IMG/VR virus record: IMGVR_UViG_3300013121_000020
Location: 64,001 to 128,000 of that record
From: a virus
Taxonomy: Duplodnaviria > Caudoviricetes
Strand: one strand, 5' to 3'
Length of the DNA stretch: 64,000 nucleotides
Under the pieces are notes generated by a model. That model saw nothing but the letters and a program-made list of their open reading frames with translations. It did not search any database and had not been told where the DNA came from. Shown here piece after piece: positions 2,899 through 51,257 of the stretch (position 1 is the first letter of the stretch; each line of letters starts with the position of its first letter). The position numbers and the translations under genes were made by a program.

Positions 2899-2912
2899 TT
2901 TGGAGATGAACT

Positions 2913-3776
2913 GTGCCGATTCATGATTTTAATGCTGATATTAAATTACCCAATTCTCAAAGTCTGCCGCATGGGGCGGCAGAACTTCCTGCTGCACGTC
3001 AATTAAGTCACGCAGAAGGTGGTCGTATTAAGTTTGATGGATCTGACTCCATGTCATATCCATATCAACTTGAAGAATTTTTACAACCGGGTTTTCGTGC
3101 GCTTGATGATGCTATGAGGCAGTATTGGTCTGGTATCCGTGTTCCTACTAAAGATTCATATCGTTTTATGAGAGTAAAGGTGGCTGGTGGTGATAAAAGT
3201 CTGTTGTTGTGGGCTGATGATTTGAAGGAAGGTCGTGCAAGATTACCACTTGCAGCGTTGTCACGTGAGTCTCATGAATTTAATCCAGAGAAATTTTCAC
3301 CTGCTTATCACGCTATGACTGCGCGATATATCACAACTCGCGGCAACTTAGCTGCTAAGGTTTATCGTCCTGTTCCATTTTTGGTTGAATACAATTTAAC
3401 TATTTGGGCAGAACATAAGCGTGATGCTGAGTATATCCTATATCAAATTTTAACAAGATATAATCCACTTGCTGAATTTAGGATGTTTGATGGGAAACTT
3501 GAAGGCAATGTTCAATTACATTACGGTGGGTCACATGATGCTAGTGATAAAGAAGCTGGATATGATCAACACGCAAATGTACGATATGAGATTTCTACAA
3601 CAGCGGAAGCATGGCTACCTTTACCAGAAAAGATTGTACCAACTGTGATTGGCCGTATGACGGTACTTAAAGAAAGAGTTGGCGAGATCGCTACCGATCT
3701 ATTTTTAGCTTCTCGTGGATCTGGTAGATTTTCTGAGCCTATTCAAGACATAAATAAAGCTGAAAATGAAATATAA
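2913..3776 (+). CDS. tail terminator / sheath stabiliser, T4 gp15-like
   Basis: RLPLAALSR and RPVPFLVEYNLTIW..QILTRYNP motifs typical of gp15-like proteins; gene order. Confidence 0.75.
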   Translation: MPIHDFNADIKLPNSQSLPHGAAELPAARQLSHAEGGRIKFDGSDSMSYPYQLEEFLQPGFRALDDAMRQYWSGIRVPTKDSYRFMRVKVAGGDKSLLLWADDLKEGRARLPLAALSRESHEFNPEKFSPAYHAMTARYITTRGNLAAKVYRPVPFLVEYNLTIWAEHKRDAEYILYQILTRYNPLAEFRMFDGKLEGNVQLHYGGSHDASDKEAGYDQHANVRYEISTTAEAWLPLPEKIVPTVIGRMTVLKERVGEIATDLFLASRGSGRFSEPIQDINKAENEI

Positions 3777-4018
3777 TGGAGTTAATGATGGCTAGTAAGA
3801 AGTCTGTGGTTGTTCGGATTTATAATCGATCGAAACAAATGATACCATTGCAATTACGAACTCCTGGTAGCGATTTCTTTACCAATGAACAACAAGTTAG
3901 AATCGATCCTGGTAAAGATGTGGTTTTGCCAAAGTCACATTTGCGCATGGAACAAGTTGAAAATTTGCAAAAACGGCGGATGATTCAAGTTATTTATGAC
4001 AGTGAAGAAGAGTCATAA
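3776..4018 (+). CDS. small hypothetical protein in the tail cluster
   Basis: 80 aa, translationally coupled (TAATG) to the gp15-like gene. Confidence 0.6.
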   Translation: MELMMASKKSVVVRIYNRSKQMIPLQLRTPGSDFFTNEQQVRIDPGKDVVLPKSHLRMEQVENLQKRRMIQVIYDSEEES

Positions 4019-5514
4019 ATTAATTTGATGTTCCCAGCATCCCAGAAACGTCGATATCCATTAGCAAACATGTTAGCTGATTCTGACATTGTTTGATCGA
4101 AATTTATCAATAATTTTTTCAACTTATGTTTTTGACATTGTAATCTAGATATAATTTTACCATTTAAATGGTAAAAATATCCTGGTGGTGTAGTATGTGA
4201 TTTTACAAATCCCATTTGTTGATATACATTACCAGTTGAATAACGTAAATCGGCGAATGTTATGACTGTTTGTGGTTTAATTGCACAAATTGCGGTTTTT
4301 AACAATCTTGCTGCACCCCCTCTAATAACATAACCAATTTTGGTTGCTAATCTCATAATTTCTATACTATTATTGCTGTGGCGATTAAATGACATGGCTA
4401 CTACTGGTTCATTGTTATCAACAAGGCACCAACACCATTTTGAGTTTCGGTGTCCGGCTAGGTGGTTTGCGTTGAAAAAAGCTTCTGCTTCTTTATCACG
4501 CATTTGAGCAACACCTAATTTTCTAGCATGTAATTTTTTAGACAAACCAAGTCGATTGGTTATCATTGATATGACAATATCTTGTTTTAATCGCCATTCA
4601 AAATCACAAAATTGCAATAATCTAATTCCTGCTTGCCGTGCTTTGATGAACTTTTCTTGATGGCGATACTTTTCTAATTTAGTTTCTGAACGATTGTATG
4701 AGTGCCAATATATTCCATGATATTCAATTCCTAATTTATGATTTGGTAAATAAATATCTATCTCAAATGGTGTAATGATTGATCTATCATTTAGAATTGG
4801 TGTGTTATTACAAATACCACTAACCAATTCGTAAATTTCACGTTGTCCAGCAGAAGTCGATGATGGTGCACAATGTGGACATCGACTACCACGCAAATGA
4901 GTTATCGGTAACTGAGTGAATGTTGCAGTGCAATTATTACATGTAATTTCGATTGGTTTCGTTGTGGTTGTATATTGCGATGCTGAATAATCAAATTTTC
5001 CGTCATGAATTTGACTAGCTTTTGATATGAAGTCTGATGTGCGTTGTTGCTGGTTGTTTATCCGTTGGCTTTCCCAATAATTTTTAGACCAATCTGAAAT
5101 TTTTTGTCGATATTCATCCGTATGCCTGTGTATTAAATGCTTTGTGCGTATCGTTGGATCAGTCCATGATTTCTTTACGGCTGTTGATATTTTGTGTGAA
5201 ATTGTTTTGTTGTGTACTGCATTGAAATAGTTTGGATCTAAATGTAATGCTGCAAATTTTTGTTTATATTCTTTTGTTTTATATAATGGATTAGATCCGG
5301 CAATAGCGTCGATTGCCGGTTTTCGACATTTATAGCACGACCATGGGTCAGTAGTGTTTTTTCTAAATTTCCAATAATTATTTAAACTTATTGATACTAT
5401 TTGTTTACAAGTGTGGCAACACACTAGTAAGGTGATGTTTGTTGTCTTAGCAAATATAGATGGGTAGTGAATCACTTGAGGGTCGGCAGCAATAGTCGCT
5501 TTGCGGGTGGGCAT
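3994..5514 (-). CDS. homing-endonuclease-like protein: Zn-ribbon/helical N-terminus, PD-(D/E)xK (Vsr/DUF559-like) nuclease, C-terminal Mom-like GNAT domain
   Basis: FEIDIYLP..LGIEYHGIYWHS nuclease motif; IEIMRLAT..GGAARLL..ITFADLRYSTGNVY GNAT-like motif; CxxC pairs. Start placed at ATG 5514 (ORF track 5586 overlaps the sheath start). Confidence 0.7.
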   Translation of the reverse strand: MPTRKATIAADPQVIHYPSIFAKTTNITLLVCCHTCKQIVSISLNNYWKFRKNTTDPWSCYKCRKPAIDAIAGSNPLYKTKEYKQKFAALHLDPNYFNAVHNKTISHKISTAVKKSWTDPTIRTKHLIHRHTDEYRQKISDWSKNYWESQRINNQQQRTSDFISKASQIHDGKFDYSASQYTTTTKPIEITCNNCTATFTQLPITHLRGSRCPHCAPSSTSAGQREIYELVSGICNNTPILNDRSIITPFEIDIYLPNHKLGIEYHGIYWHSYNRSETKLEKYRHQEKFIKARQAGIRLLQFCDFEWRLKQDIVISMITNRLGLSKKLHARKLGVAQMRDKEAEAFFNANHLAGHRNSKWCWCLVDNNEPVVAMSFNRHSNNSIEIMRLATKIGYVIRGGAARLLKTAICAIKPQTVITFADLRYSTGNVYQQMGFVKSHTTPPGYFYHLNGKIISRLQCQKHKLKKLLINFDQTMSESANMFANGYRRFWDAGNIKLIYDSSSLS

Positions 5515-5544
5515 GACTACTTTATTGCTCCAAGCAAAAGTATA
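5450..5544 (+). promoter_or_regulatory. two putative late-promoter motifs upstream of the sheath gene (GCAAATATA 5450-5458, GCAAAAGTA 5534-5542)
   Basis: the same motif recurs before many structural genes. Confidence 0.5.
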
Positions 5545-5567
5545 GTAACTTACGAGGATAAATACAT

Positions 5568-8414
5568 ATGGCAGTTTATCTTTCACCCGGTGTATTCCCG
5601 CGTGAGATCGATCTCAGCGTACTGCCGACAGCAGTTGGTCCATTGCGTCCCGCCTTTATCGGGACGGCTAAGAAGGGACCACTAAACCAAGCTGTGCTTG
5701 TGACAACATCACAACAGGCAATCGACACATTTGGTGAACCATTTCCATCATCCCATCTCATGTACGCTGTGTTAGCATACCTTGAAGAAGGTAATCAATG
5801 CTACGTTATGCGGGTTGGGGTTGAATGCGAAACTGGCCAACCAGAAGAACTATCATCAATCTGTATAGACACAAGTGGTGGGCGAGGTTCTGGTTGGGGC
5901 AGGATTCCCCTCTTTACTGGGATCGATTTTGGTCGTCTCAATTTTAGAGAAATCACGACTGAAAGCCCAGTCAGTTTCCATGCGGCAAGCGTCAGTGATA
6001 TTACATATAACGATGTGGATGTTTCAACAACGCAAGGGGCAACTACCGCAACATTGAGTGTTACTGGGACTTATAGTGGAGATATTGAAGATTCGTTTGT
6101 GATGGTGATTACTGGTCCGCCAACTGTGTCGGCGGCTGATAAGATTGAAGGCGCAACATTCCAAATTATTCGCAATTCTGATGGTGAAATTGTTGCTAGT
6201 GGGAATTTGAATGACCCAGATTATAACGGCACATCGCAATTGATCGTTCTTGATAATGGTCTTAGTGTGCAAGTTATAGTCACCGCTGGTGTTTTGGATG
6301 AGAATGATACATTCACATTCAAAGTTCACCCAGATAATAGAGTGTTTTCGATTTCGGTTGAAGGTGGTGTGGCTAACTCATATACGATGCCAACTGCCAC
6401 TTACACAACCGCAGCAGCATTTAAAACCGCATTTAACGCATTATTAAGTAGTGAAGATTACCTCATGATCGAGTATACTCTCGATGATGGGGTGACTGTG
6501 ATTCCACAGGTGCGAACAACAGTCGCTGGTGAACGAATTCAATTGATGACAACGTCTGCGTTTGCGATTGAAGTTGGTTCGCAGCGATATGCGTGGGATA
6601 TCCCACGTTCATATCTGCTTGGGGTTGATGCTGGCCCATATGACATTTCGACTCAAAATAACAGACTAAAAGTGAATGTTATTGGAGACGAAACGACAAA
6701 AACTGTTGAGTTTAATGTTCCGGTCGGTGTTGGTCAAACCGCAACAAACATTGCTCAATCGATTGATGTGGCTGGTGTTGTGGACGGTGAGGTTTTGTGG
6801 GATTCGTTTGCATTAACTGTCCCAGGTGGATCGCAGCATGTAGTGATGGTAACAGTTATTGACCATCAATTTGACACTTTACAATTGATGGCCAATTACT
6901 CCAATTTGAAGACGTTACGTTTTGCTGAAGAATTAAACATTCCGTTCCCTTATAAGCGTTCGTATCGTGGGTTTAGTGATAATCGATTGACTTTACCTTC
7001 ATCTGGTGCGGTCACAGCTAGCACTCCACTTTCGTGTGAAGTTGATCCGCTAAGTAGTGATTGTGCATCGGATACTGCATACTTCCAAAACATTGTTGGT
7101 TGGCTGGTAGCACCAAGCCCTGGGACTTGGATTGATGGATATTCAGCTACTTTGGAAGTGTTCACTGAATCGAGTGCTCCGAGTGGTGTGTATAAGATTA
7201 CTATAAAGGATGCTAATAGGGCGGTTGTTGAAGTAATTGAAAACATTACTTTCGATAAACGAGACGATCGATACATTGCCAATGTTATCAATCCTGGAAC
7301 GAAATATGGTGGCACAAGTGGCAATGTTTTTGTGAACTGGGAAGAACGACCAGCATATCTCGACAATGATGTTAATTTAACATCATTTGCTGTGCGATAT
7401 CCATCTCAGTTTTCGGAGAAACAATATGAAGGACAAGCTGATGGTATTCCAACTGATCCAGCTTATTCTTCAGAATTAGATTCTGTGGTGATTGGTAATC
7501 CAGCAACCTCAAGCGGTTTATACGCATTCCAGAACCCTGAATCTATTGATATTAATATTTTGTGTACTCCAGGTTTTTCTACTGGAGCAGTTATTGGCAC
7601 AGCTTTGCAAATGTGTGAAAGCCGTGGAGATGTTCTTTATATTGTTGATCCTCCGTTTGGTTTAAGACCACAACAAGTAGTTGATTGGCACAATGGTATG
7701 CTGTTGTCCGATCTTAAATCGGCAATTAATTCAAGTTATGGATCATTGTATTGGGGATGGTTAAGAACTTTCGACCAATTTTCGAATAGTGAAATTTGGG
7801 TTCCACCATCTGGGCATGTTGCAGCAGTATTCAGTAGAACTGCTCGCGACACAGAACAATGGTTTGCACCTGCTGGTTTGCGACGTGGAAGACTGTTAAC
7901 TGCCTTGGATGTTGAATATAGCCCAACACAAGGTGAACGTGATCTGTTGTATGGATCTGGAAATTCTGTGAATCCAATTGTAAAGTTCCCGCAAGACGGG
8001 ATTACAGTGTGGGGTCAACGAACGCTCCAGAGAACACAATCAGCACTTGATAGAGTTAGTGTTCGAATGTTGTTGATACATTTGAAGAAGAATTTGATTC
8101 AATTGTTACGAAACTTCATTTTCGAACCAAACGATAGAATCTTGTGGAAACAAGTGCTGGCATCTGTCAATCCGTTCTTGTCTGATATACAGGCTCGTCG
8201 TGGCTTGCAAGCGTTTAATGTGATATGTGACGAGTCTAATAACACTCGTGAACGGATTGATCGCAACGAATTGTGGATATCAGTGTTCTTTAAACCAACG
8301 AAGACAGTTGAATTCGTTGTGTTGAATTTGGTGGCATTAAGAACTGGAGCCAGCTTTGCTGCTGAAGAAGTGTTGGCTGCTGGTGGTGTTGTGCCACTAG
8401 CAACTGCTACATAA
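5568..8414 (+). CDS. contractile tail sheath protein, T4 gp18-like, with large inserted domains
   Basis: MAVYLSPGVFPREID N-terminus; WFAPAG.RRG, NPIVKFP..GITVWGQRTL, FEPND, FKPTKTVEF motifs. Confidence 0.95.
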   Translation: MAVYLSPGVFPREIDLSVLPTAVGPLRPAFIGTAKKGPLNQAVLVTTSQQAIDTFGEPFPSSHLMYAVLAYLEEGNQCYVMRVGVECETGQPEELSSICIDTSGGRGSGWGRIPLFTGIDFGRLNFREITTESPVSFHAASVSDITYNDVDVSTTQGATTATLSVTGTYSGDIEDSFVMVITGPPTVSAADKIEGATFQIIRNSDGEIVASGNLNDPDYNGTSQLIVLDNGLSVQVIVTAGVLDENDTFTFKVHPDNRVFSISVEGGVANSYTMPTATYTTAAAFKTAFNALLSSEDYLMIEYTLDDGVTVIPQVRTTVAGERIQLMTTSAFAIEVGSQRYAWDIPRSYLLGVDAGPYDISTQNNRLKVNVIGDETTKTVEFNVPVGVGQTATNIAQSIDVAGVVDGEVLWDSFALTVPGGSQHVVMVTVIDHQFDTLQLMANYSNLKTLRFAEELNIPFPYKRSYRGFSDNRLTLPSSGAVTASTPLSCEVDPLSSDCASDTAYFQNIVGWLVAPSPGTWIDGYSATLEVFTESSAPSGVYKITIKDANRAVVEVIENITFDKRDDRYIANVINPGTKYGGTSGNVFVNWEERPAYLDNDVNLTSFAVRYPSQFSEKQYEGQADGIPTDPAYSSELDSVVIGNPATSSGLYAFQNPESIDINILCTPGFSTGAVIGTALQMCESRGDVLYIVDPPFGLRPQQVVDWHNGMLLSDLKSAINSSYGSLYWGWLRTFDQFSNSEIWVPPSGHVAAVFSRTARDTEQWFAPAGLRRGRLLTALDVEYSPTQGERDLLYGSGNSVNPIVKFPQDGITVWGQRTLQRTQSALDRVSVRMLLIHLKKNLIQLLRNFIFEPNDRILWKQVLASVNPFLSDIQARRGLQAFNVICDESNNTRERIDRNELWISVFFKPTKTVEFVVLNLVALRTGASFAAEEVLAAGGVVPLATAT

Positions 8415-8423
8415 TTGTTATTA

Positions 8424-8449
8424 GTGTGGGGGACATATGTCCCCCACAC
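8424..8449. terminator. 26-bp perfect palindrome between convergent genes, probable bidirectional terminator
   Basis: GTGTGGGGGACAT/ATGTCCCCCACAC. Confidence 0.65.
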
Positions 8450-8451
8450 AT

Positions 8452-8877
8452 TTATCGTCGCATTAATTTAGAACCGGGCAATTCTAGAAAGCCAACTTCT
8501 GAAGAGAAATAGAAATTTTTACACCCGACTGCTGATAGCAATTCAAAACATGGTCTGCATGGTTTGCTTAGACGTAATTTACCAAGTTTGTTTAGTCTAA
8601 TGTTAATAATCTCAAAAAAGCCGTCTTCAAGAATTCCTCTTGCGCGTTTATATGCCCATATTTCAGCGTGAAATTTTGGGACAAATGTAATGTCATTTTT
8701 GCTGCTGTGATATCCATAATGTAATGGTGGTTCTAGACGTCCATTAGTTGCCCATTCTACAATTTGATTGTGTTGCACTATGAACGCATAGTGGATAAAT
8801 CCTTTGATACGTTCCGGGTGGTGTTTCAGTTTGGTTTGAGCGGTTTTAATAGCAGAATATAATAAATTCTTCTTCAT
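8452..8877 (-). CDS. zinc-dependent cytidine/dCMP deaminase-fold protein
   Basis: HAE and SKPCRPC zinc-binding motifs. Confidence 0.75.
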   Translation of the reverse strand: MKKNLLYSAIKTAQTKLKHHPERIKGFIHYAFIVQHNQIVEWATNGRLEPPLHYGYHSSKNDITFVPKFHAEIWAYKRARGILEDGFFEIINIRLNKLGKLRLSKPCRPCFELLSAVGCKNFYFSSEVGFLELPGSKLMRR

Positions 8878-8921
8878 AACACTATGTGGCAGTGTACTAA
8901 TGTTGATAAATATTGATGTGA

Positions 8922-10235
8922 TTAATGTGATGGTTCATATATAAAACACAATTTTGGGCCTCCCCATTTTTTGATATATCCAAATTTTTCAGCGAATTGG
9001 CTTTCTGTGAGTTTTAAATTTACAGCACGATTATAAAGTGTCTTTTTATGCATGACAAAGCCGTCTTTATCAACATACCAATAATCTGGATTTGTTTGAT
9101 GGTGGAGTTTGAAATTTGCTGCTTTATAAACAGCGCCAGTATGACCAACAGTTGTGTCAGCAAATGCTATAACTGCTTTATAGTTTTTAACAAGTTTTGC
9201 TAACCACCAACTAAGCAGATTGTGTTTGTGATAATTTGGATGTACACATAGTCGTGCTAATTCGACGGTGTTGGGTGGAAATTGGTGTGCCATGTTTTGT
9301 CGCGGGAGTGGACTAAATCGACTCACAGCGATTAATTTATTTTCTAGCCATAGTCCAAAATCAGTTCCTCCTCTAGAGCTTGTTAAATAATGATATTTAG
9401 ATAAAAATTTATTCGATTCTTCTCTGCTTAATTGATTACTATACAATTGAGATAATTTGAATTGTGTTGTTTCAATTGCGAGATTGAGTTTTAATTTAAG
9501 ACGATCTAACACACGATCTTTGGTTGCAAATTCATGTTCCCAAATATACATGATTTCATATTCTGGAAAATATCGTTGTATATATGTGAATTTTGAACGA
9601 TCATTACGAATAGCTTTTGGTAATGAATGCCAATAATCTCCTTGACATTCGATTAAGATTGATCGGGGTTTATGTGGAATTAAACAATCGAATGAATAAA
9701 ATCCGATAGTTGTGTTTGGACCTTCTTTGTGATGTTCTACTCCGAGATTTGTTAAATATTCATATAAAATTGTCTGTAGTGATGATGTTTTTTGTCTGCT
9801 TAAATTGTTTAATGCGGCGATTCGATATGAGTTGTCTAACCATCTTTGTCGTAGTCCGATTGATATTTTTTCTCGTGTTTCTGGAGTTGCAAGAGCTGTT
9901 TTTACATTATTTATTATTTTTGTTCTGTATTCTAGAATTGTCCATAATTTTAATGTTCTAATTGATTGTTGTTTTTTATATTCATCAGTTGTATTTGCCG
10001 CGATACTTGCTGCGGTGATTTTCGCTCTAAAATCTGATCGTTTCCATAAAGTTTTGCTTTGTTCGGAACGGCGTTCTGAAGAGCCACTATATTTTCCTGT
10101 CACACCAGCTAACTTTGCTGCACATTTTTGACATAAATATACGCCATTCTTCTTTATGTTGGCTTTGTAAGTGTCGCGGCGTACTAAACCAGACCACCCA
10201 CAGTTACAATTGGCGTGTTCACGTGGTCTAGCCAT
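8922..10235 (-). CDS. homing-endonuclease-like protein: Zn ribbon, helical repeats, Vsr/DUF559-like nuclease, Mom-like GNAT domain
   Basis: YSFDCLIP..LIECQGDYWHS; VELARLCVHP..VIAFADTTVGHTGAVYKAANF (Mom-like); ATG 10235 has a GGAG SD. Confidence 0.75.
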   Translation of the reverse strand: MARPREHANCNCGWSGLVRRDTYKANIKKNGVYLCQKCAAKLAGVTGKYSGSSERRSEQSKTLWKRSDFRAKITAASIAANTTDEYKKQQSIRTLKLWTILEYRTKIINNVKTALATPETREKISIGLRQRWLDNSYRIAALNNLSRQKTSSLQTILYEYLTNLGVEHHKEGPNTTIGFYSFDCLIPHKPRSILIECQGDYWHSLPKAIRNDRSKFTYIQRYFPEYEIMYIWEHEFATKDRVLDRLKLKLNLAIETTQFKLSQLYSNQLSREESNKFLSKYHYLTSSRGGTDFGLWLENKLIAVSRFSPLPRQNMAHQFPPNTVELARLCVHPNYHKHNLLSWWLAKLVKNYKAVIAFADTTVGHTGAVYKAANFKLHHQTNPDYWYVDKDGFVMHKKTLYNRAVNLKLTESQFAEKFGYIKKWGGPKLCFIYEPSH

Positions 10236-10246
10236 ACGATTCTCCA

Positions 10247-10286
10247 GCAAAACTATATTGAATAGCATGTTGCTATCTAAAAATAC
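10247..10286 (+). promoter_or_regulatory. putative late-promoter motifs upstream of the tail tube gene (GCAAAACTA 10247-10255, CTAAAAATA 10277-10285)
   Basis: recurring motif. Confidence 0.5.
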
Positions 10287-10304
10287 ATTTGCCGAGGGTT
10301 TCAA

Positions 10305-10886
10305 ATGCCCGGCTTTAATATTGCACCATATGGTGGTGGTTACTCAGTACAAGGGCCTTCTAACGTCCTTGAAACTCGGCGCAAGCACCGTTGGGTGTTT
10401 GAGACGATTGGCAGAGGTACTGGTAGCTTTTCTCAGACAGAATTACTAGTGTTGCAGTCTGCATCTCGTCCGAGTTTTAAATTCGAAGAACCTGAGATGC
10501 ATCACAATCAAGAAGTATCCCGTTTTGCTGGTAAGCAAGATTGGGAACCGATTACTATGACGTGGTATGATGTTCAACAAGATCCTGACGTTTCGCGTGG
10601 GATCTATATGTGGATTGAGACTGTTGTTAACATGTTCTCATTACAGGTTGCTCATCCTAGATTATATAAAAAGACTGCTGTTCTTTTGATGATTGATGGT
10701 GTTGGTCAAACTACTGAACGATGGACGATGCTTGGGACATGGCCATCAACTTGCAATTGGCAAGAATTAGATTACACTTCCACTGATATTCAAACATTGG
10801 AAGCGACAATGAGATATGATCGTGCGGTGCGTGATTGCGTTGCTCCGATTTCTCCGCAACCAATTTCGCCAAACTGCCCAGTTTGA
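10305..10886 (+). CDS. tail tube protein, T4 gp19-like
   Basis: FAGKQDWEPITMTWYD, W.MLGTWPS, ELDY..T.RYD tube motifs; follows the sheath. Confidence 0.85.
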   Translation: MPGFNIAPYGGGYSVQGPSNVLETRRKHRWVFETIGRGTGSFSQTELLVLQSASRPSFKFEEPEMHHNQEVSRFAGKQDWEPITMTWYDVQQDPDVSRGIYMWIETVVNMFSLQVAHPRLYKKTAVLLMIDGVGQTTERWTMLGTWPSTCNWQELDYTSTDIQTLEATMRYDRAVRDCVAPISPQPISPNCPV

Positions 10887-10894
10887 TAATTAGT

Positions 10895-10931
10895 AGAAGG
10901 CAATGGGGTACTATAACACCCATTGCCTTCT
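10895..10931 (+). terminator. 13-bp inverted repeat, probable terminator after tube gene 1
   Basis: AGAAGGCAATGGG..CCCATTGCCTTCT followed by T-rich sequence. Confidence 0.65.
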
Positions 10932-10986
10932 TGCTTATTTGCAAATATAAGCAGTGTTTGCAATTCGCTTGATTGTGGGAGGCGCA

Positions 10987-11577
10987 ATGCCTGGTTTTAG
11001 AATACCAGTCCCAAATTATTGTGGAGTTACTGATTTTGGCGATGGGCCAAGCAATACTGTTGAAACAGCACGTAGACATCGTTATTCTCTAGAGGTCTTA
11101 GAGCCGCTTGGTGATAAATACACAGGATTGTTATTATTTGGATATAAATGTACAAGACCGACAATTGAATTTGATGAGATGGCGATTCATAATGGTCAAG
11201 ATGAAATTTTTCGTCCTGGTAAACAACATTGGAAACCAGTTGATTTCAGTTTTTATGAAAAGCTTGATGGCGACAATGTTTTATCTAATCAAGCGGCTGA
11301 ATTAATTTATGGGTGGTGGGGCTTCACTATGGTTAATGTGTGGAGTTCATTACATCAAGAACCAGCAAAATATTTAAAAAATATTCAACTTGATTTGTTA
11401 GATGGTTCTGGAAAAACAGTATGGGTATATGAGTTGTTAGATTCTTGGCCATCACGTATATCACCAAGTCAACTAGATTATACTGATACTGCGATTGCTG
11501 ATATTACTGTTACTATTAGATATTCTAAAGCACGAGAAGGTCAATTTCCTTTTGGCATAGACACCTCGGCTCTTTGA
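10987..11577 (+). CDS. tail tube paralog 2 (gp19/gp54-like)
   Basis: PGKQHWKPVDFSFYE, DSWPS..LDY motifs; GGGAGG SD; GCAAATATA at 10941. Confidence 0.75.
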   Translation: MPGFRIPVPNYCGVTDFGDGPSNTVETARRHRYSLEVLEPLGDKYTGLLLFGYKCTRPTIEFDEMAIHNGQDEIFRPGKQHWKPVDFSFYEKLDGDNVLSNQAAELIYGWWGFTMVNVWSSLHQEPAKYLKNIQLDLLDGSGKTVWVYELLDSWPSRISPSQLDYTDTAIADITVTIRYSKAREGQFPFGIDTSAL

Positions 11578-11591
11578 ATTTGGAGGGTGGT

Positions 11592-12122
11592 ATGCCTGGA
11601 TTTATGATAGATAGGTTTGGCGGAGAGAGAATTCATACTCAACCATTGGGTGGTAAACGACAATATTATTATAATTATTTTTGGGAAATTGAAGACTTAT
11701 TTGAAACGAAATTATTTAGCACTACTGATGCACTTATTTCGTTGAAAGATGTCACATTACCAACATTTACTGTTAGTAAAGAAACATATGTTGGTAGCAC
11801 TTTAGAGTACAAGTTTGCTAAAAATGTGACATGGGAAGATATTAAGGTGAGTTGGTATGATTCAGAGGGTCTTTTACCGTTTGTGAAAGGTTGGAGAGAA
11901 TCGGTATGGACACCAAACACTGGTTTACAAATGTCAAATGAATATAAGAAAATTTCAATAATACATCATTTTTTACCAACTGGAAAAAGAAATAATAAAT
12001 GGCGTCTTATTAATAGTTGGCCATCTCAGATTAGAAATGGTGAATTGACATATACAAGCAGTGAGATAAAATTGGTTGAAGTTACCATAACCTATGATTG
12101 GGCTGAAGAAACGCCCGGTTAG
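11592..12122 (+). CDS. tail tube paralog 3 (gp19/gp54-like)
   Basis: FAKNVTWEDIKVSWYD, NSWPS..ELTY..VTITYDWA; GGAGG SD. Confidence 0.75.
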   Translation: MPGFMIDRFGGERIHTQPLGGKRQYYYNYFWEIEDLFETKLFSTTDALISLKDVTLPTFTVSKETYVGSTLEYKFAKNVTWEDIKVSWYDSEGLLPFVKGWRESVWTPNTGLQMSNEYKKISIIHHFLPTGKRNNKWRLINSWPSQIRNGELTYTSSEIKLVEVTITYDWAEETPG

Positions 12123-12155
12123 TATATAGTAAGAAGCAAAATACACATCATTATT

Positions 12156-13196
12156 ATGGTGATTAATATGGAAGAAGAACTAAACATTAATGCTCCTAGT
12201 GATCCAATTTCTAAGAAACAAGCTCAAGATCAGCAGTCAGAAGAAGATCATGCCAATCGTATGGATGGTAAGGTTGGCGATTTGAGTGATGTCGCTGCTC
12301 CTGGGCAAACTAATGAAGAATTTATTCATAGGTTGCTGCAGGTTCCCAGTGACCGATTGATTCCATGGGAAGAATGCTGGTTGCCAAGTAAGGGTATTTA
12401 TTATGGATGGCCAGATGGGTTAGTTAAAGTTAAGGCTATGGGGCAAGTTGCGGAAAAGATTTTATCAACGCAGAGACTAGCCCAAACTGGACAATCTATT
12501 GATTATTTATTTAGGGAATGTTGTCAGTTTCCGAATGGATTCGATCCAGTTGATTTGTTGCTTGGCGATAGAATATTTATGTTATATTTTATCCGTGGTA
12601 TTACTCACGGTAATATGTATGAGTTTGTGATTACATGTCCAAATGTAAACTGTGAAGCTGTTAGTACGCATACTTATGATCTTAATGATCTTGCTCAAAC
12701 GATTAATTGGGCGAAGCCAGAACTTGGTCGGGAACCATTTCAAGTGGACTTGCCATATATTTCAGCAGCTACTAAACGTCGTGTGTGGGTTGGAGTTCGA
12801 TTTTTGCGTGCTTCTGATGCGAGTGATATTCTTGCAAAGCGTAAGACACGGAAGAAGATGTTTGCAAAACCAGGTGGTGTTCGCACAAGAAGTAGGTCTG
12901 GACAGCAGTCAGTTGATCCGCGACAGCAGGCTGAGCAAAATCAGATGTTGGATGATACCATTTCTCACAATATGGAGAAGATTATTGTTAATGTTTTAGG
13001 CATTAACGATTTGTTCACTGTTCGTGATTTTATTTCTAAAATGCATGCTCAAGATACAGCTGCGGTCAGAGAATGGCTGCGGGAGAATACTCCGGGTATC
13101 GACAACACTGTAACTGTTACCTGCCCAGAGTGCAGTAACGAGTTTACAGTTGAGTTGCCGATCACGGACTCATTTTTTCGCCCGTCAAAGTCCTGA
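12156..13196 (+). CDS. baseplate hub assembly / tail assembly chaperone, gp26-like
   Basis: LPSKG..Y, LLLGDRIF..RGIT.G..Y, CP..C motifs, TPGID..CPEC, C-terminal FFRP. Confidence 0.75.
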   Translation: MVINMEEELNINAPSDPISKKQAQDQQSEEDHANRMDGKVGDLSDVAAPGQTNEEFIHRLLQVPSDRLIPWEECWLPSKGIYYGWPDGLVKVKAMGQVAEKILSTQRLAQTGQSIDYLFRECCQFPNGFDPVDLLLGDRIFMLYFIRGITHGNMYEFVITCPNVNCEAVSTHTYDLNDLAQTINWAKPELGREPFQVDLPYISAATKRRVWVGVRFLRASDASDILAKRKTRKKMFAKPGGVRTRSRSGQQSVDPRQQAEQNQMLDDTISHNMEKIIVNVLGINDLFTVRDFISKMHAQDTAAVREWLRENTPGIDNTVTVTCPECSNEFTVELPITDSFFRPSKS

Positions 13197-15301: not shown

Positions 15302-16432
15302 ATGGCTCATGATCTAAATGCTTATCGACTGAAATTAGACGGCGGCGCAAAACGAATCCCAGCATCTAAAATTGCGGCGTGGATCGAGAAGCATTTTGAT
15401 TTTAAAACTAGAAAGGATGGTGACGAATATTGCATATGTAATCCGTTCAATGGCGACACCGGATTTCATATGAATATAAATCCTGAAAAAATGGTCGTGC
15501 ATTGTTGGACTGGAGACGAGTGGGCGGGACCTGTTAATCCGAATACAGGTAAAAGAAATTGCTCGTTTATTCAATTGGTGAAGCTTTACAAAAAGTGTTC
15601 ATATCAAGAAGCCGTCAAAGACGTTCTCGATACCACAGAAGACATTAGAGCGTTTTTAAGGCCAGAAGCCCGCCATAGCACCGCAAAACCAACTCGAAAA
15701 ATAGCGGTGGCCCTTCCTGAGGGCACGGAACGATTGACTTATGATATCGATAAACAAAAACGTATATTAATCAATTGGCTCATATCTCGCGGTTATACTA
15801 TACAAGATATTGATAAGAATGATATTTATAGTCTTGGTATAGACGTTTATTGGCCATATTATGAATTTGATGAATTAGTATATTGGCAAAGTCGAAGTCG
15901 TTTTAATAAAATTTACAGATTTCCAGATACGACAATATATGATAGAAAAGGTGCGATAGTTGGTGAAACAGAAGGTAGCAAAGGTGATTTTCTATATGGA
16001 TTTGATGAATGTGATTCTGCTAATTATTTGATCTTAACTGAGTCGATTTTTGGTCAATATACGTTAGGCCAACAAGCATTAGCATCCGGTGGTGCATTAA
16101 TAACTCCGTCGCAAATTGGCAAGATTAAAATTTTGGGTCCTAGAAAAGGAATAATATTATCGCCAGATAATGATAAAGCTGGAATTCAAAGTATTATATC
16201 GAATAAAACTCTTTTAAAATCTGTTGGTTATCCAATCTTTTATAGTGTACCACCAAGAATTGAATATGTCGAAGATGGAAAACGCCATTATACAAAAGAT
16301 TGGAATGAGTTTATTACAAAATTGAAGATAAGTAAAGAGGAGATTAGAGAGATTCATGATCGCGGCATTAAACGTTTAACACATGCGTCACTTTCTCATT
16401 TGTACTCGTTTATGCCGCGTCATAAAAATTAA
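15302..16432 (+). CDS. DNA primase (Zn-binding domain plus TOPRIM), gp61/DnaG-like
   Basis: CNPF..VHCW Zn finger; YWQSR; LILTESIF; SPDNDKAG; KDWNE. Confidence 0.85.
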   Translation: MAHDLNAYRLKLDGGAKRIPASKIAAWIEKHFDFKTRKDGDEYCICNPFNGDTGFHMNINPEKMVVHCWTGDEWAGPVNPNTGKRNCSFIQLVKLYKKCSYQEAVKDVLDTTEDIRAFLRPEARHSTAKPTRKIAVALPEGTERLTYDIDKQKRILINWLISRGYTIQDIDKNDIYSLGIDVYWPYYEFDELVYWQSRSRFNKIYRFPDTTIYDRKGAIVGETEGSKGDFLYGFDECDSANYLILTESIFGQYTLGQQALASGGALITPSQIGKIKILGPRKGIILSPDNDKAGIQSIISNKTLLKSVGYPIFYSVPPRIEYVEDGKRHYTKDWNEFITKLKISKEEIREIHDRGIKRLTHASLSHLYSFMPRHKN

Positions 16433-16977
16433 GCAGTTAATGATCGTCCAATTGCTTCTTCTACTTTTTGAACCATTTCATATATCGGGTTGGCTTTAGT
16501 TATTGTTTGATTTGTGCCAAGGTCAATAGATGTGTCGGCAGTGAATAATATATGAAAAGAATTTCGACCACCATATGATTTTCTTGTTTCTACTATGACT
16601 GTGATGCCCGGATTGCAATTTGGATCTTGTAATCTAAGTTCATCACATGTTTTATATTGTGGTGGTGATAGATTTAAAATGTCGACCCATTCGAAATTTT
16701 TACATTTGTTGCTGGTTCCAACAATAGCTGCTTCGATGCATAGTTTATCAAATATTGTTTTTGTTGTTTTATGATAACCTTTTCTTTGTTTTTCAATCAC
16801 TTTGGTTTCTATGAAATTCAGTAGAAGCCAATCATTGTTAAATTGTTTAATTTGTGATTGGCCTTGTGTGCCTAATCTTCCCCAACGAATGGTGGCTGTC
16901 AATGTTTGTTTGTCTATATTGACAATCCAAAATTTGTTGTGGTTTTTGCCAGTGTTGATGTAGATTGTTTCTTGCAT
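16429..16977 (-). CDS. WGR-domain protein
   Basis: HNKFW..IRWGRLGTQGQ..K..KGY. Confidence 0.85.
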   Translation of the reverse strand: MQETIYINTGKNHNKFWIVNIDKQTLTATIRWGRLGTQGQSQIKQFNNDWLLLNFIETKVIEKQRKGYHKTTKTIFDKLCIEAAIVGTSNKCKNFEWVDILNLSPPQYKTCDELRLQDPNCNPGITVIVETRKSYGGRNSFHILFTADTSIDLGTNQTITKANPIYEMVQKVEEAIGRSLTA

Positions 16978-16995: not shown

Positions 16996-17271
16996 TCATT
17001 GTTTTACCTGATATCGATTTATAATTATTGCATTTTTGGTATAGATTTCACGAAAACCAGATTTAAATGAAATTGGACAATGACTTCGAAACCATTCGAT
17101 TTTTCTATCAAGTGATAATCGCGATAACTCATGCGATCTTTGTATTATTTTCTCACGTTCAGAATTTCCTATCATGTCAGATATGATGCCACAATATTTA
17201 TTGTTTCGTTCTCCTAATAGTAATAGCAATATATATTTTTGATTTTTGTAATTTAAATAGATTAGATCCAT
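16996..17271 (-). CDS. hypothetical protein
   Basis: 91-aa ORF with AAGGA SD, co-oriented with the WGR gene. Confidence 0.55.
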   Translation of the reverse strand: MDLIYLNYKNQKYILLLLLGERNNKYCGIISDMIGNSEREKIIQRSHELSRLSLDRKIEWFRSHCPISFKSGFREIYTKNAIIINRYQVKQ

Positions 17272-17316
17272 TTTTAGTCCTTAAATAAATAAAAATCAAA
17301 GATGGTGTGGTGATAT

Positions 17317-18612
17317 ATGAAACAACCGCAAGCAAAAGAACGTCCAAGGATCAAGCTCACATTCCAATTTCGAGGATTGGCTGGGATTGATTATGGGCAT
17401 CTTTTTAAAAGTTTTGAATTTCAAGGTATGGTAAATGGTGGTTATATAATTCGCGCTCAATTATATGATGCTAATTATGGTTTATTGAATCGTCTTATGG
17501 AAGAAGGATATCTTAAAGAAACAAGAGAAAATCCAGTAGCAGTACGTTTTCAAATTCTAGCTGGGGTTAATGGAGTCTATCCTGAATCAGCTACGAAACC
17601 ACAGACTGCTATTGTGCTTGGTATAGATGTTGTTGGTGGTCCAGCTGATATTGGAGTTATTGAATTTATGGCAATAGATCCACCATCGTGGTATCTAAAT
17701 ATGGGAGACGCATCTGGTGGTGTATTCAAAGGGCGTGTTGATCAAGTTATTAAACAAGTTATACAGAAATATGCTCCTCAAGTCACTGCTGAAGTTGGTC
17801 GGACCGTTGATTCTGAACAAAATAAATTTTGGATGATGCGACAAGATCCAAAAACATTCTTAGCATCATTGATGGATTGGTCGTCGTCTGTTACTCAACG
17901 GAAGACTAATTGGCTGGTTGAAGTGGATGGTTATAATATATCAATAAAAGAACAGGCGGCATTAGTATCAAAACAGCGTGGATTTTATCGTTATATTTCT
18001 GGAAATAATCAAAGCACTATTGAACGATTAGCGTTAAAAGCCGACAATGCATTGAGTGTTGTGCAAACTAAATTGATTACTGCTGGTCTTTCATCGATTT
18101 CTGGACAATATCTTGATAAAATAACAGATGAGAAAGAAAAGAAAGTTGTTGTGAAAGATAGTAATACAAGTAATAAACAAATCGCAAAGACAAACGATGA
18201 TCAATCATTTTCAAAACCGCCAGACGCTGGTCCAATAAGGGCTGGATGGACTGAAGTAACAGCAATTCCAGAAGTTTATTCAGCTGGTGAGCTTGGTCTA
18301 CGATATGATGAATATATTGACGGTAGGCCACGTGCTTTGTGGTTGAATATGGTGAATTCACTGTTGCGTGCTAAATTTAGCGTTCTTGGACATGGTGAAT
18401 GGTCTGAGTGTCGTGGTTTAGGTATAGATACTGTTTTTATAAAGTGGACTTCTTCAAAAAATATTGGTGGTGATCAATTTTGGTGGACAACCGGTGCGTG
18501 GTTAGTGTATGGATTTAACCATGTAGTTAGTAGTGATGAGTGGACTACTGATTTATATTGTGCTAGATTTGATCACAATGCTGATGCTAGACGTATTGGT
18601 GCGTCTGAATAA
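17317..18612 (+). CDS. probable baseplate hub protein (gp27 / late control D-like)
   Basis: 431 aa; C-terminal FSVLGHG..TGAWLVYGFNHVV..WTTDL is typical of hub proteins; near the tape measure gene. Confidence 0.6.
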   Translation: MKQPQAKERPRIKLTFQFRGLAGIDYGHLFKSFEFQGMVNGGYIIRAQLYDANYGLLNRLMEEGYLKETRENPVAVRFQILAGVNGVYPESATKPQTAIVLGIDVVGGPADIGVIEFMAIDPPSWYLNMGDASGGVFKGRVDQVIKQVIQKYAPQVTAEVGRTVDSEQNKFWMMRQDPKTFLASLMDWSSSVTQRKTNWLVEVDGYNISIKEQAALVSKQRGFYRYISGNNQSTIERLALKADNALSVVQTKLITAGLSSISGQYLDKITDEKEKKVVVKDSNTSNKQIAKTNDDQSFSKPPDAGPIRAGWTEVTAIPEVYSAGELGLRYDEYIDGRPRALWLNMVNSLLRAKFSVLGHGEWSECRGLGIDTVFIKWTSSKNIGGDQFWWTTGAWLVYGFNHVVSSDEWTTDLYCARFDHNADARRIGASE

Positions 18613-49505: not shown

Positions 49506-51257
49506 ATGGAAAGGTTATGTATGGCGACTCCCATGCCAGTTCATCAACAATTTACTAATGAACAGAAAATAGACATTACTAATTTGTTTTATGTTGGTAA
49601 ATCACAAGAGGAAATTGCGAACTTATATTGTAAACCACGTCGTACTATCGGCAAATTATTAATTCATCTTGGCTTAAGAAGAACTGCAAGTGAAGTTGGT
49701 AAATTGTCTATTGAATCTCCATGGGAGCATTTAGTTGATCGTGTGCGGGAATTGCGTCCTACTCATTCATTACCTCAAATTGTCGCGTTGCTTGGGATTC
49801 CACAGAGTTCTTTGGCTAGATTATGTGAACGTCATAGCATACCAGTTCCTGACGATTATTCAGATTTACAGTCACAACGCATGAAGGCTGCTTGGACTGA
49901 TGAGCAGAAAGCAGAAGCTGCGAAAATCGCTTTATCTAGAGTTACTCCTGAATTGCGTGAGAAATTGGCTGAGGGGTCAAGAAAGTTATGGGATAATCAA
50001 GAATATCGCGCGAAACAAGTTACGTCTCAGAAGATTGTGTGGGCTGATGTTGAATTACGCCAAAGAATGTCAGCCGTTTTAACTGAATATTGGGATAGCG
50101 CAGAACGTCGTGAGGTTATGGCTGCTGTGCAGCAGTTGGTGTGGACGGACGATAAGAAAGCAGAAATGTCAGAGATTCAGAAGAAAATTTGGGCGGACCC
50201 AGAAAAACGGCGTAAGATTTCTGAGTTGATGCGTATAGTGTGGGCCAATCCAGTTTTACGTAACGTTAACTCAGAACGAGTAAAGAAAGTTTGGCAGGAT
50301 GATAATTTTAGAGCACGTATGGCAGTTGCTCGCTCAAGTCAGCCTAGAGTTTCTAGTTTGCAAGATATTCTATATGGAATACTTGATGATTTGAATATAG
50401 TTTATTATCGTGAATATGAAAATAGACCAGCTGATAATGAATGTGTTATAGGTCCATACAATTTTGATTGTGTAATTCCAAGATCTGGTCGGAAATCATT
50501 ATTAATAGAATGTCATGGTGATTATTGGCATTCACTTGACAAAGCAATTAGGGTTGATAAAGCTAAAGCAACTTATGTCGAACGTTATCATAGTCATGAA
50601 TATGAGTTGCATTATCTATGGGAACATGAATTCTCGTGTCAAGATAAAATAATTGAGACTATTAAATATTGGTTAGGTATTAATGAATTAGAAGTTTTAG
50701 ACTTTGATTTTACAAATTTAAAAATTAAACCAACACCAGCCATGCATTATCGTAATCTACTTTCAAAATATCATTATTTAGCTAATGCTGGTCGTGGTGG
50801 TGTTGCTTATGGTGCTTATCTTGATGATGTTTTGATTGCGGTTTGTGTTTTTTCGCCTTTGGTTAGGCAAAATATTGACACTCTTGAGTTTGGTCATAAG
50901 GAGTGTGTTGAGTTGAGCCGTTTGTGTATTCACCCTCGATATCAAAAGAAGAATTTAGCTTCTTGGTTTGTTAGTCGTTGTATGAAGCAGCTTGGTGATA
51001 AGATTAAAATGGTTATTTCTTATTGCGATACTACTTTTAATCATGATGGGGCTGTTTATAAATCGTTGAATTTTAAACAAGATAAAGTTGTCCGACCTGA
51101 TTATTGGTATGTTAATGAGAATGGTTGGGTGATGCATAAGAAGACGTTGTATGGGAAAGCTGTGAAAATGTCGATGATTGAGTCTGAATATGCTGAACGT
51201 TTTGGTTATAAGAAAGTATTTGGAACTGAGAAACTGCGATTTGTTTTTGAACGATAA
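49506..51257 (+). CDS. homing-endonuclease-like protein: HTH, Trp-containing helical repeats, Vsr/DUF559-like nuclease, Mom-like GNAT domain
   Basis: YNFDCVIP..LIECHGDYWHS; VELSRLCIHP..ISYCDTTFNHDGAVYKSLNF; C-terminal half closely paralogous to 8922..10235. Confidence 0.78.
   Translation: MERLCMATPMPVHQQFTNEQKIDITNLFYVGKSQEEIANLYCKPRRTIGKLLIHLGLRRTASEVGKLSIESPWEHLVDRVRELRPTHSLPQIVALLGIPQSSLARLCERHSIPVPDDYSDLQSQRMKAAWTDEQKAEAAKIALSRVTPELREKLAEGSRKLWDNQEYRAKQVTSQKIVWADVELRQRMSAVLTEYWDSAERREVMAAVQQLVWTDDKKAEMSEIQKKIWADPEKRRKISELMRIVWANPVLRNVNSERVKKVWQDDNFRARMAVARSSQPRVSSLQDILYGILDDLNIVYYREYENRPADNECVIGPYNFDCVIPRSGRKSLLIECHGDYWHSLDKAIRVDKAKATYVERYHSHEYELHYLWEHEFSCQDKIIETIKYWLGINELEVLDFDFTNLKIKPTPAMHYRNLLSKYHYLANAGRGGVAYGAYLDDVLIAVCVFSPLVRQNIDTLEFGHKECVELSRLCIHPRYQKKNLASWFVSRCMKQLGDKIKMVISYCDTTFNHDGAVYKSLNFKQDKVVRPDYWYVNENGWVMHKKTLYGKAVKMSMIESEYAERFGYKKVFGTEKLRFVFER

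Follow-up and report, generated by a model that had tools for sequence, protein, structure and literature searches.

Free-standing nuclease genes of the Hef type are a known component of phage genomes. Hef itself dates from 2005, the enzyme of phage U5 cleaves nrdB (Edgell et al., 2010, PMC2988022), Hef-type enzymes have been placed in the Vsr-like EDxHD family (Taylor et al., 2011, PMC3239194), and phage LIMEstone1 carries four Hef-like genes (PMC3296691). In jumbo phages, Mom domains are fused to nucleases of the restriction endonuclease (REase) fold, and it has been proposed that the phage is shielded by momylation, the nuclease being directed at other DNA (Iyer et al., 2021, PMC7824862). 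Both the Mom-nuclease fusion, with its restriction-modification reading, and the idea of cutting and protecting are therefore already published. Here, three genes of this kind (genes 1, 2, and 3) are described in a stretch of 64,000 nucleotides, called the window, which comprises bases 64001-128000 of the 354,091-bp virus record IMGVR_UViG_3300013121_000020. The record is 98 % complete, has 38.7 % G+C and represents the 354-kb genome of an uncultured phage; a megablast search with 25 kb against cultured phages returned zero matches.

Each gene consists of a variable DNA-binding head, a Vsr-like nuclease domain and a C-terminal GNAT domain, the same build as in Hef of U5 and the Hef-like genes of PHROG 3339/559. 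The three genes are very probably free-standing homing endonuclease genes of the Hef type. The wider reading, in which a homing endonuclease also marks its own DNA through its tail, is favored with modest confidence, and its most specific part, modification of DNA by the tail domain for self-protection, is put forward tentatively. Hef-like members from cultured phages of Campylobacter, Acinetobacter, Dickeya (LIMEstone), Pseudomonas (PA5oct) and Bacillus (AR9/PBS1) were compared. They likewise stand free between conserved genes and occur in many copies per genome, but they share only 22-40 % identity with the window genes and have different heads; genes 1 and 2 are, in addition, antisense to the virion operon.

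I-Bth0305I (EDxHD; structure 3R3P) has the same nuclease fold and catalytic positions and, likewise, an N-terminal DNA-binding head. Unlike the window genes it is intron-encoded and ends at the nuclease, without a GNAT tail. Mom of phage Mu (PF25680; 8BV8) has in common with the window tails the GNAT fold and a helical insertion; it is a stand-alone, Com-regulated dimer that acts genome-wide, whereas the domain in the window is fused to a site-specific nuclease. Single-chain restriction-modification enzymes of Type IIG/IIL (MmeI-like) use a methyltransferase dependent on S-adenosylmethionine, recognize short sites and serve in cellular defense. They combine nuclease, modifier and a shared DNA-reading part in one chain, which is the logic proposed here for the window genes; these differ in that a GNAT takes the modifier's place and in their behavior as mobile elements.

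As gene annotation, three more Hef-like homing endonuclease genes are routine. The central question is why thousands of selfish nucleases carry a Mom-type enzyme. Marking of the target by this domain, if it occurs, would account for the ability of free-standing homing endonucleases to leave their own genome uncut, and a site-directed DNA aminoacyl-transferase would join the toolbox. The useful yield of the analysis consists of two subfamily active-site signatures, the spread of the module across nuclease folds, and a lead toward tRNA-Gly.

Gene Organization and Family Membership

The window encodes virion genes for the tail sheath, tube paralogues and capsid, and the three nuclease genes are placed among them (Table 1). 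Genes 1 and 2 are both antisense and lie on either side of the tail sheath gene, gene 1 between it and an 80-aa gene and gene 2 between it and the tail tube gene; gene 3 is immediately downstream of the major capsid gene. Homologues that begin at the same Met uphold the starts at 5514 and 10235.

Table 1. Coordinates of the nuclease genes, their domains and neighboring features in the window (aa, amino acids; ORF, open reading frame; HMM, hidden Markov model).
Feature	Positions	Strand	Basis
Gene 1, 506 aa, putative Hef-type homing endonuclease, subfamily A	3994..5514	-	PHROG 3339 (E 5e-91); model; hhalign
Gene 1 GNAT domain, aa 326-506	3997..4539	-	VIA fold search, residue table
Gene 1 Vsr-like nuclease domain, aa 222-322	4549..4851	-	aligns to gene 2 nuclease domain
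Tail sheath gene, 948 aa	5568-8414		ORF list
Stem-loop, 11 bp (8 G-C), directly after the sheath stop codon, left edge of inserted segment	8424..8449		terminator-like scan, consensus match only
141-aa deaminase-fold gene (H-A-E ... P-C-x-x-C)	8452..8877	-	ORF; Atlas score 0.98, TM 0.87 to viral clusters
Gene 2, 437 aa, putative Hef-type homing endonuclease, subfamily B	8922..10235	-	Pfam Mom; PHROG 3339/559/1384; model
Gene 2 Mom-like GNAT domain, aa 258-437, two-helix insertion before last strands	8925..9464	-	Foldseek, VIA, hhalign
Gene 2 Vsr-like (EDxHD) nuclease domain, aa 150-252	9480..9788	-	VIA, profile match to 3R3P
Gene 2 head, aa 1-144, Cys4 zinc ribbon then Trp-periodic helical repeats	9804..10235	-	model
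Three tube paralogues	start at 10305		ORF list
Major capsid gene	47790-49427		ORF list
Gene 3, 583 aa, putative Hef-type homing endonuclease, subfamily B	49506..51257	+	Pfam Mom; PHROG 1384/559/3339
Gene 3 Vsr-like nuclease domain, aa 282-391	50349..50678	+	domain HMM from gene 2 family, 116 bits
Gene 3 Mom-like GNAT domain, aa 399-583	50700..51254	+	domain HMM, 234 bits

All three genes match the PHROG 3339/559 "homing endonuclease" families across nuclease and tail. Searches with tblastn retrieved genes annotated as "Hef-like homing endonuclease" in phages of Campylobacter, Bacillus (AR9/PBS1), Yersinia, Acinetobacter and Pseudomonas and in T4-like phages, and one Acinetobacter record is annotated "nuclease/acetyltransferase". 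The family is very large, with 2890 representatives at E<=1e-3 in a library clustered at 50 % identity, 364 of them below 1e-30. Two subfamilies are distinguished below, A (the gene 1 type) and B (the type of genes 2 and 3). Genes 2 and 3 are 40.6 % identical over residues 41-434 and 187-582, respectively. The original prediction from the sequence had recognized the three reading frames and their division into variable head, Vsr-like nuclease and C-terminal GNAT, all of which Pfam, PHROG and the structural models bear out; its restriction of the paralogy of genes 2 and 3 to their C-terminal halves was too narrow, as the likeness covers ~90 % of gene 2. A methyltransferase family was found in none of the three genes, and the only modifier-like domain is the GNAT.

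The three copies in the window are part of a larger set. Genome-wide, nine Mom-bearing nuclease genes were found (three of the gene 1 type, five of the gene 2/3 type and one headed by an endonuclease VII/HNH region), so that the count of three, correct for the window, does not hold for the genome. The six PF25680 matches in the genome all fall in open frames of 431-585 aa, each of which also has a nuclease region. No stand-alone Mom is encoded in the genome; every Mom-like domain is joined to a nuclease.

DNA-Binding Heads and Nuclease Domains

The heads of these proteins are variable. The AlphaFold model of gene 2, made with 52 homologues, has a predicted local distance difference test (pLDDT) score of 88 and shows strands at residues 5-19 and helices at 53-144; C12, C35 and C38 are nearly invariant. 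Its repeats resemble NUMOD3 by eye (S-x-E-T-R-x-K-I-S), and Pfam gave no match to them. Zinc ribbons and helical repeats are present in the models of both gene 1 and gene 2. The head of gene 3 contains about eight Trp-periodic repeats and matches helix-turn-helix (HTH) families weakly (HTH_38, E 0.08), and the heads of relatives carry PF14311, PF05265 and HTH families.

Residues 150-252 of gene 2 superimpose on the catalytic domain of I-Bth0305I (3R3P) with a VIA Z score of 12.4 and a root-mean-square deviation of 3.3 over 94 of 98 residues. Detection by sequence required the family profile, which matched 3R3P at E 5e-3 and Mu Mom (8BV8) at 1.5e-7; a phmmer search of gene 2 itself against PDB sequences returned zero matches. 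In the profile alignment H203 of gene 2 falls on the catalytic H213 of I-Bth0305I. Conservation was counted by alignment column in 52 homologues of gene 2 (~45 % identity) and 52 of gene 1. In the gene 2 family D183, E196, D212 and K215 are invariant and H203 is present in 51/52, and in that of gene 1 E251, D253, E264, H271 and K288 are invariant. The nuclease domains of genes 1 and 3 align to that of gene 2 (by hhalign and the domain HMM, respectively), and genes 2 and 3 match the Pfam family REase_MTES_1575 below its cut-off. The catalytic residues are retained in all three window genes and in eight of the nine genome copies. A literal D-x-E motif, as first described for these genes, is not present; the motif is E-x2-G-x-YWH, with the catalytic Asp some 10-13 residues upstream.

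Gain and Loss among Relatives

Eighty relatives were fetched for comparison by the sheath gene and 77 by the capsid gene. The usual order around the sheath is a 287-aa gene, an 80-aa gene, sheath and tube, with short gaps. The site of gene 1, at the junction of the 80-aa gene and the sheath gene, is empty in 63/68 relatives. The sheath/tube junction, which here holds gene 2 and a 141-aa gene, is empty in 45/66; the other 21 contain inserts of 0.35-7.7 kb with varied content, including an intact Hef-like gene in five, and some loci without a tube gene also bear a Hef-like gene just after the sheath gene. Of the 77 relatives compared at the capsid gene, about 8 have a Hef-like gene, whole or in part, immediately downstream of it, and the rest have none. 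Remnants also occur. In the nearest relative by sheath identity (locus L001), the site of gene 1 holds, on the matching strand, only a frame-shifted stub of an orthologue, with ~60 codons from the N-terminal end spread over two frames. Locus L051 has kept a C-terminal fragment.

The sheath/tube junction is thus an insertion hot spot, and the window genes are mobile, not core. Intact genes, decayed genes and empty sites together are what is expected from the life cycle of a homing endonuclease gene. The original prediction had asked for a comparison of empty and occupied loci and had described selfish nucleases with exchangeable DNA-binding heads, and this description holds: the heads differ, and the genes are sporadic in relatives. 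Fixation as core genes in all relatives, which the prediction had named as a refutation, is thereby rejected.

In the same relative L001, the 7.7 kb between sheath and tube (L001:10841-18513) contain three intact Hef-like genes (11072-12544, plus strand; 15310-16773 and 17081-18448, both minus strand), the last of which is the positional orthologue of gene 2.

The distribution bears on two other explanations. The genes could encode a one-chain restriction-modification weapon directed against host DNA or unrelated superinfecting phages, with the Mom part shielding the phage genome widely. This is the published prediction for Mom-REase fusions in jumbo phages (Iyer et al., 2021, PMC7824862), and nine copies with different heads would cover many sites. 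However, the homing-type heads, with their NUMOD-like repeats and zinc ribbons, and the relationship to I-Bth0305I and Hef suggest recognition sites that are long and rare, and gain and loss at single intergenic sites beside conserved genes, with remnants, is the pattern of homing and not of a defense gene, which makes a weapon of this kind improbable. The least probable explanation is a dispersed anti-restriction system, an alternative raised in the original prediction, in which the Mom-like domains would modify adenines genome-wide and the nuclease domains would be accessory. Although the homology to Mom is true and the genome holds many copies, none of these stands alone; each comes attached to a site-specific head and to a nuclease whose active site is intact. 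Moreover, most relatives, close ones included, are without such genes at these loci, so that the genes are dispensable for viability.

The Mom-Like C-Terminal Domain

The Pfam family Mom (PF25680, cut-off 27.1 bits) matches gene 2 with 64.4 bits (E 1e-17) and gene 3 with 63.2 bits (E 3e-17). Residues 258-437 of the gene 2 model have Mu Mom (8BV8) as their top match both in Foldseek (E 4.5e-9) and in VIA (Z 13.8, 149 residues aligned), and hhalign aligns the gene 2 family to Mu Mom with 94.8 % probability. Judged from the model, Mu Mom is the nearest solved relative of this domain. Gene 1 has no match to Pfam Mom, and when aligned directly it resembles Mu Mom only weakly (probability 11 %). Its AlphaFold model (pLDDT 92.6) nevertheless ends in a GNAT fold (VIA Z 14.2), for which Mom ranks 21st (Z 12.0) with the longest alignment (147 residues). 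The tail of gene 1, which had been called a more divergent version, is truly homologous to that of gene 2, because the two families align from the zinc ribbon to the C-terminus (hhalign 99.8 %, E 2e-27). The expected similarity to Mom therefore stands directly for genes 2 and 3, by Pfam and by fold, and for gene 1 through its homology to the gene 2 family, its GNAT fold being confirmed by the model. At the place of Mom's insertion, between the last strands, helices are modeled in gene 2 (397-417) and gene 1 (457-484). A homodimer prediction for residues 150-437 of gene 2 gave a score of 0.00, which counts neither for nor against a dimer.

The enzyme of phage Mu modifies double-stranded DNA by attaching glycine, taken from Gly-tRNA(Gly), to adenine N6 (PMC13219725, 2026). 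In the same study, R111 and S124 were essential, S124A being a dead variant, R151A had no detectable activity, and D149A, H58A, Y59A and Y159A were strongly impaired. Activity also needs the helical insertion (about residues 175-209), through which Mom, modeled as flipping the target adenine, would contact the DNA (PMC13219725).

These residues were mapped by hhalign, followed by column counts. In subfamily B the equivalents of H58, Y59, R111, N121, D149 and Y159 are invariant (H282, Y283, R328, N339, D360 and Y370 in gene 2), and that of S124 (S342) is kept in 50/52; genes 2 and 3 share these seven positions with Mu Mom, and in a count of seven active-site residues that includes the essential R151 they keep six. 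The position of R154 is an invariant His. In subfamily A the equivalents of H58, R111, R151 and Y159 are invariant and that of D149 is present in 49/52. Here the Y59 position is Leu or Ile, the N121 position is Gly within a Gly-Gly loop, and the S124 position is Ser in 40/52 and Ala in 3/52, gene 1 included. Gene 1 keeps the equivalents of H58, R111, D149, R151 and Y159, with Ala402 in place of S124. Judged from these columns the tail domain is under strong selection at catalytic-type positions, but neither subfamily holds the complete set of Mom. In each window gene the full momylation set (R111, S124, D149, R151) is incomplete, with the other positions kept. The C-terminal domain is a conserved module and probably catalytic.

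The Proposed Mechanism and the Role of the Tail

The three probable homing endonuclease genes, like the six further Mom-bearing ones elsewhere in the genome, are located amid conserved virion genes. In the proposed mechanism, the variable head, built from zinc ribbons, HTH or NUMOD3-like repeats, would read a long DNA site, and the Vsr-like EDxHD nuclease would cut the gene-free allele of a co-infecting relative, into which recombinational repair would then copy the gene. The same head would hold the Mom-like GNAT on the same site, where an adenine would be acylated, probably aminoacylated, and the resident allele would thereby be spared, as in single-chain restriction-modification enzymes. 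Self-marking of this kind is plausible but unproven, and the marking step keeps that status because R151 is missing in subfamily B and S124 in gene 1.

Several observations weigh against marking by the tail. The R151 position is Thr in 52/52 members of subfamily B (T362 in gene 2, and Thr also in gene 3, whose residue pattern is that of gene 2), the Ala of gene 1 at the S124 position is the very change that inactivates Mu Mom, and W48, a dimer-contact residue of Mom, is not conserved. In 2005 Sandegren and colleagues reportedly found that Hef cuts both its own and gene-lacking DNA in vitro, which would speak against immunity based on sequence and is silent on modified DNA. Furthermore, a mixed infection exposes both genomes to the same enzyme, and protection would need hemi-modified daughter DNA to be refractory to cleavage.

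The same substitutions speak for another reading, in which these homing endonucleases carry a Mom-like domain that no longer modifies DNA and would serve as a DNA clamp, a base-flipping specificity module or a regulator of the nuclease. A descendant that only binds is conceivable, given that Mom is modeled to flip adenine and to bind DNA via its insertion. In a clamp, however, the invariance of six polar Mom active-site positions across the subfamilies and four nuclease scaffolds would be unexpected, and most members have Ser or Thr at the 124 position. A non-modifying tail is, on balance, unlikely, though it deserves to be taken seriously.

A substrate other than DNA, such as aminoacyl-tRNA or a protein, would place the domain with GNAT toxins or Fem-type transferases and tie the nuclease to host physiology. 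GNATs that use or attack aminoacyl-tRNA do exist (PMC13219725), and the Gly-Gly of subfamily A at the N121-S124 loop is closer in appearance to the cofactor loop of GNATs in general. However, among solved structures the one nearest to the gene 2 model is that of the DNA-modifying Mom and not of a toxin, the helical insertion specific to Mom is present, and the domain always accompanies DNA-binding heads and nucleases; a non-DNA substrate is accordingly very improbable.

The Mom-Like Module on Other Nuclease Scaffolds

A feature that is new here is the presence of the Mom-like module on LAGLIDADG and endonuclease VII/HNH-type scaffolds as well. The gene at L126:7804-9228 encodes a LAGLIDADG nuclease (PF14528, 32 bits, above the cut-off; PHROG 4645, E 9e-47) followed by a Mom domain (E 1e-24), and this build occurs at full length in at least 16 protein clusters with 49-91 % identity. 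A second arrangement, at L125:7742-9553 and in relatives, consists of HTH and NUMOD3 motifs, a weakly scored REase-like region and Mom. In the genome of the window itself, the head of the gene at 141846-143444 (L159:847-2445) matches endonuclease VII/HNH families in PHROG and is not Vsr-like; it bears two S-x-D-R...G-Y...N modules. The Mom active-site pattern is retained on the LAGLIDADG, HTH/REase-like and endonuclease VII/HNH-type scaffolds. The LAGLIDADG-Mom and HTH-Mom fusions are covered by no cultured phage record, and none of the papers searched pairs LAGLIDADG with Mom/GNAT.

A tree was built from 77 Mom modules. Those fused to LAGLIDADG fall into one clade (97/91) and those of the HTH type into another (98/91), and the two clades join (100/99) beside or within the Vsr-type B modules. 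The endonuclease VII-type module has a long branch and clusters with type A. Repeated recruitment of the module by unrelated homing nucleases argues for a general use to such elements, which agrees better with self-marking than with a scaffold-specific structural role.

Three further proteins of 560-690 aa (P0445, P0450 and P0457) combine LAGLIDADG (PF14528) with a C-5 cytosine methyltransferase (PF00145). They may be nuclease-modifier fusions or, alternatively, inteins inside methyltransferase genes.

A tRNA-Gly-Like Gene Next to Mom-Bearing Genes

The second new feature is a tRNA-Gly(UCC)-like gene that abuts a Mom-bearing gene in two lineages. In the genome of the window, but outside the window, a tRNA-like gene at 144918-144987 on the plus strand (L159:3919-3988) scores 45.6 bits against Rfam tRNA and ends 2 nt from the stop codon of a Hef-like paralogue (144990-146237, minus strand). 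Its acceptor end has G1-C72, C2-G71, G3-C70 and a discriminator U, which we take to be the identity set of bacterial tRNA-Gly, and UCC is found in an anticodon loop that is one base short. In the second lineage (L012, L014, L016, L353) a tRNA-Gly(UCC) gene (L012:7375-7445) lies within the sheath/tube insert, 25 bp after a Hef-like gene, and its anticodon loop can pair down to 3 nt.

The adjacency is suggestive in view of Mom's use of Gly-tRNA(Gly), yet it is no more than a lead, since among 223 Mom-bearing ORFs at 318 loci an adjacent tRNA gene was found in just these two lineages, and homing genes are often near tRNA genes. A search for further copies with the exact pattern found none, and a degenerate pattern found the L012 lineage only. 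BLAST of five related phage records, four of them complete, gave one weak partial match (E 0.03), and a tRNA survey of the four complete relatives detected no such gene.

Combined with the scaffolds described above, these observations allow a broader conjecture, in which the Mom-like GNAT would be a general self-marking module of selfish nucleases on at least three unrelated folds (Vsr-like, LAGLIDADG and endonuclease VII/HNH-type), aminoacylating adenine in its own target and, in some phages, fed by an adjacent non-decoding tRNA-Gly-like RNA. The genome that carries it would escape cleavage, and alleles without the mark would be cut. This is speculative and rather unlikely; if true, these would be the first homing endonucleases with a built-in, tRNA-fed DNA modification.

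Neighboring Features and Environmental Occurrence

Gene 2 shares its inserted segment with the 141-aa gene, which follows downstream after 44 nt and is probably co-transcribed with it. The 141-aa gene is described here as a neighbor of gene 2, not as part of the element. The viral clusters that match its predicted deaminase fold (template modeling, TM, score in Table 1) partly carry PF00383 or MafB19-deam. The gene is absent from the sheath loci of all 80 relatives; a pattern search of viral contigs found no relative, and NCBIfam gave no match. The stem-loop at 8424-8449 is located between the converging tail sheath and 141-aa genes and could act as a bidirectional transcription terminator. 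A promoter-like scan of the region gave nothing above chance.

Contigs of 150-300 nt, with a depth of 2-4 and mostly identical to positions 2900-11600 of the window, were found in four metagenome runs from sludge or activated sludge, belonging to four studies. They are scattered pieces only, and none spans an empty site. Their presence suggests that the phage, or a very close relative, is resident in wastewater sludge at low abundance.

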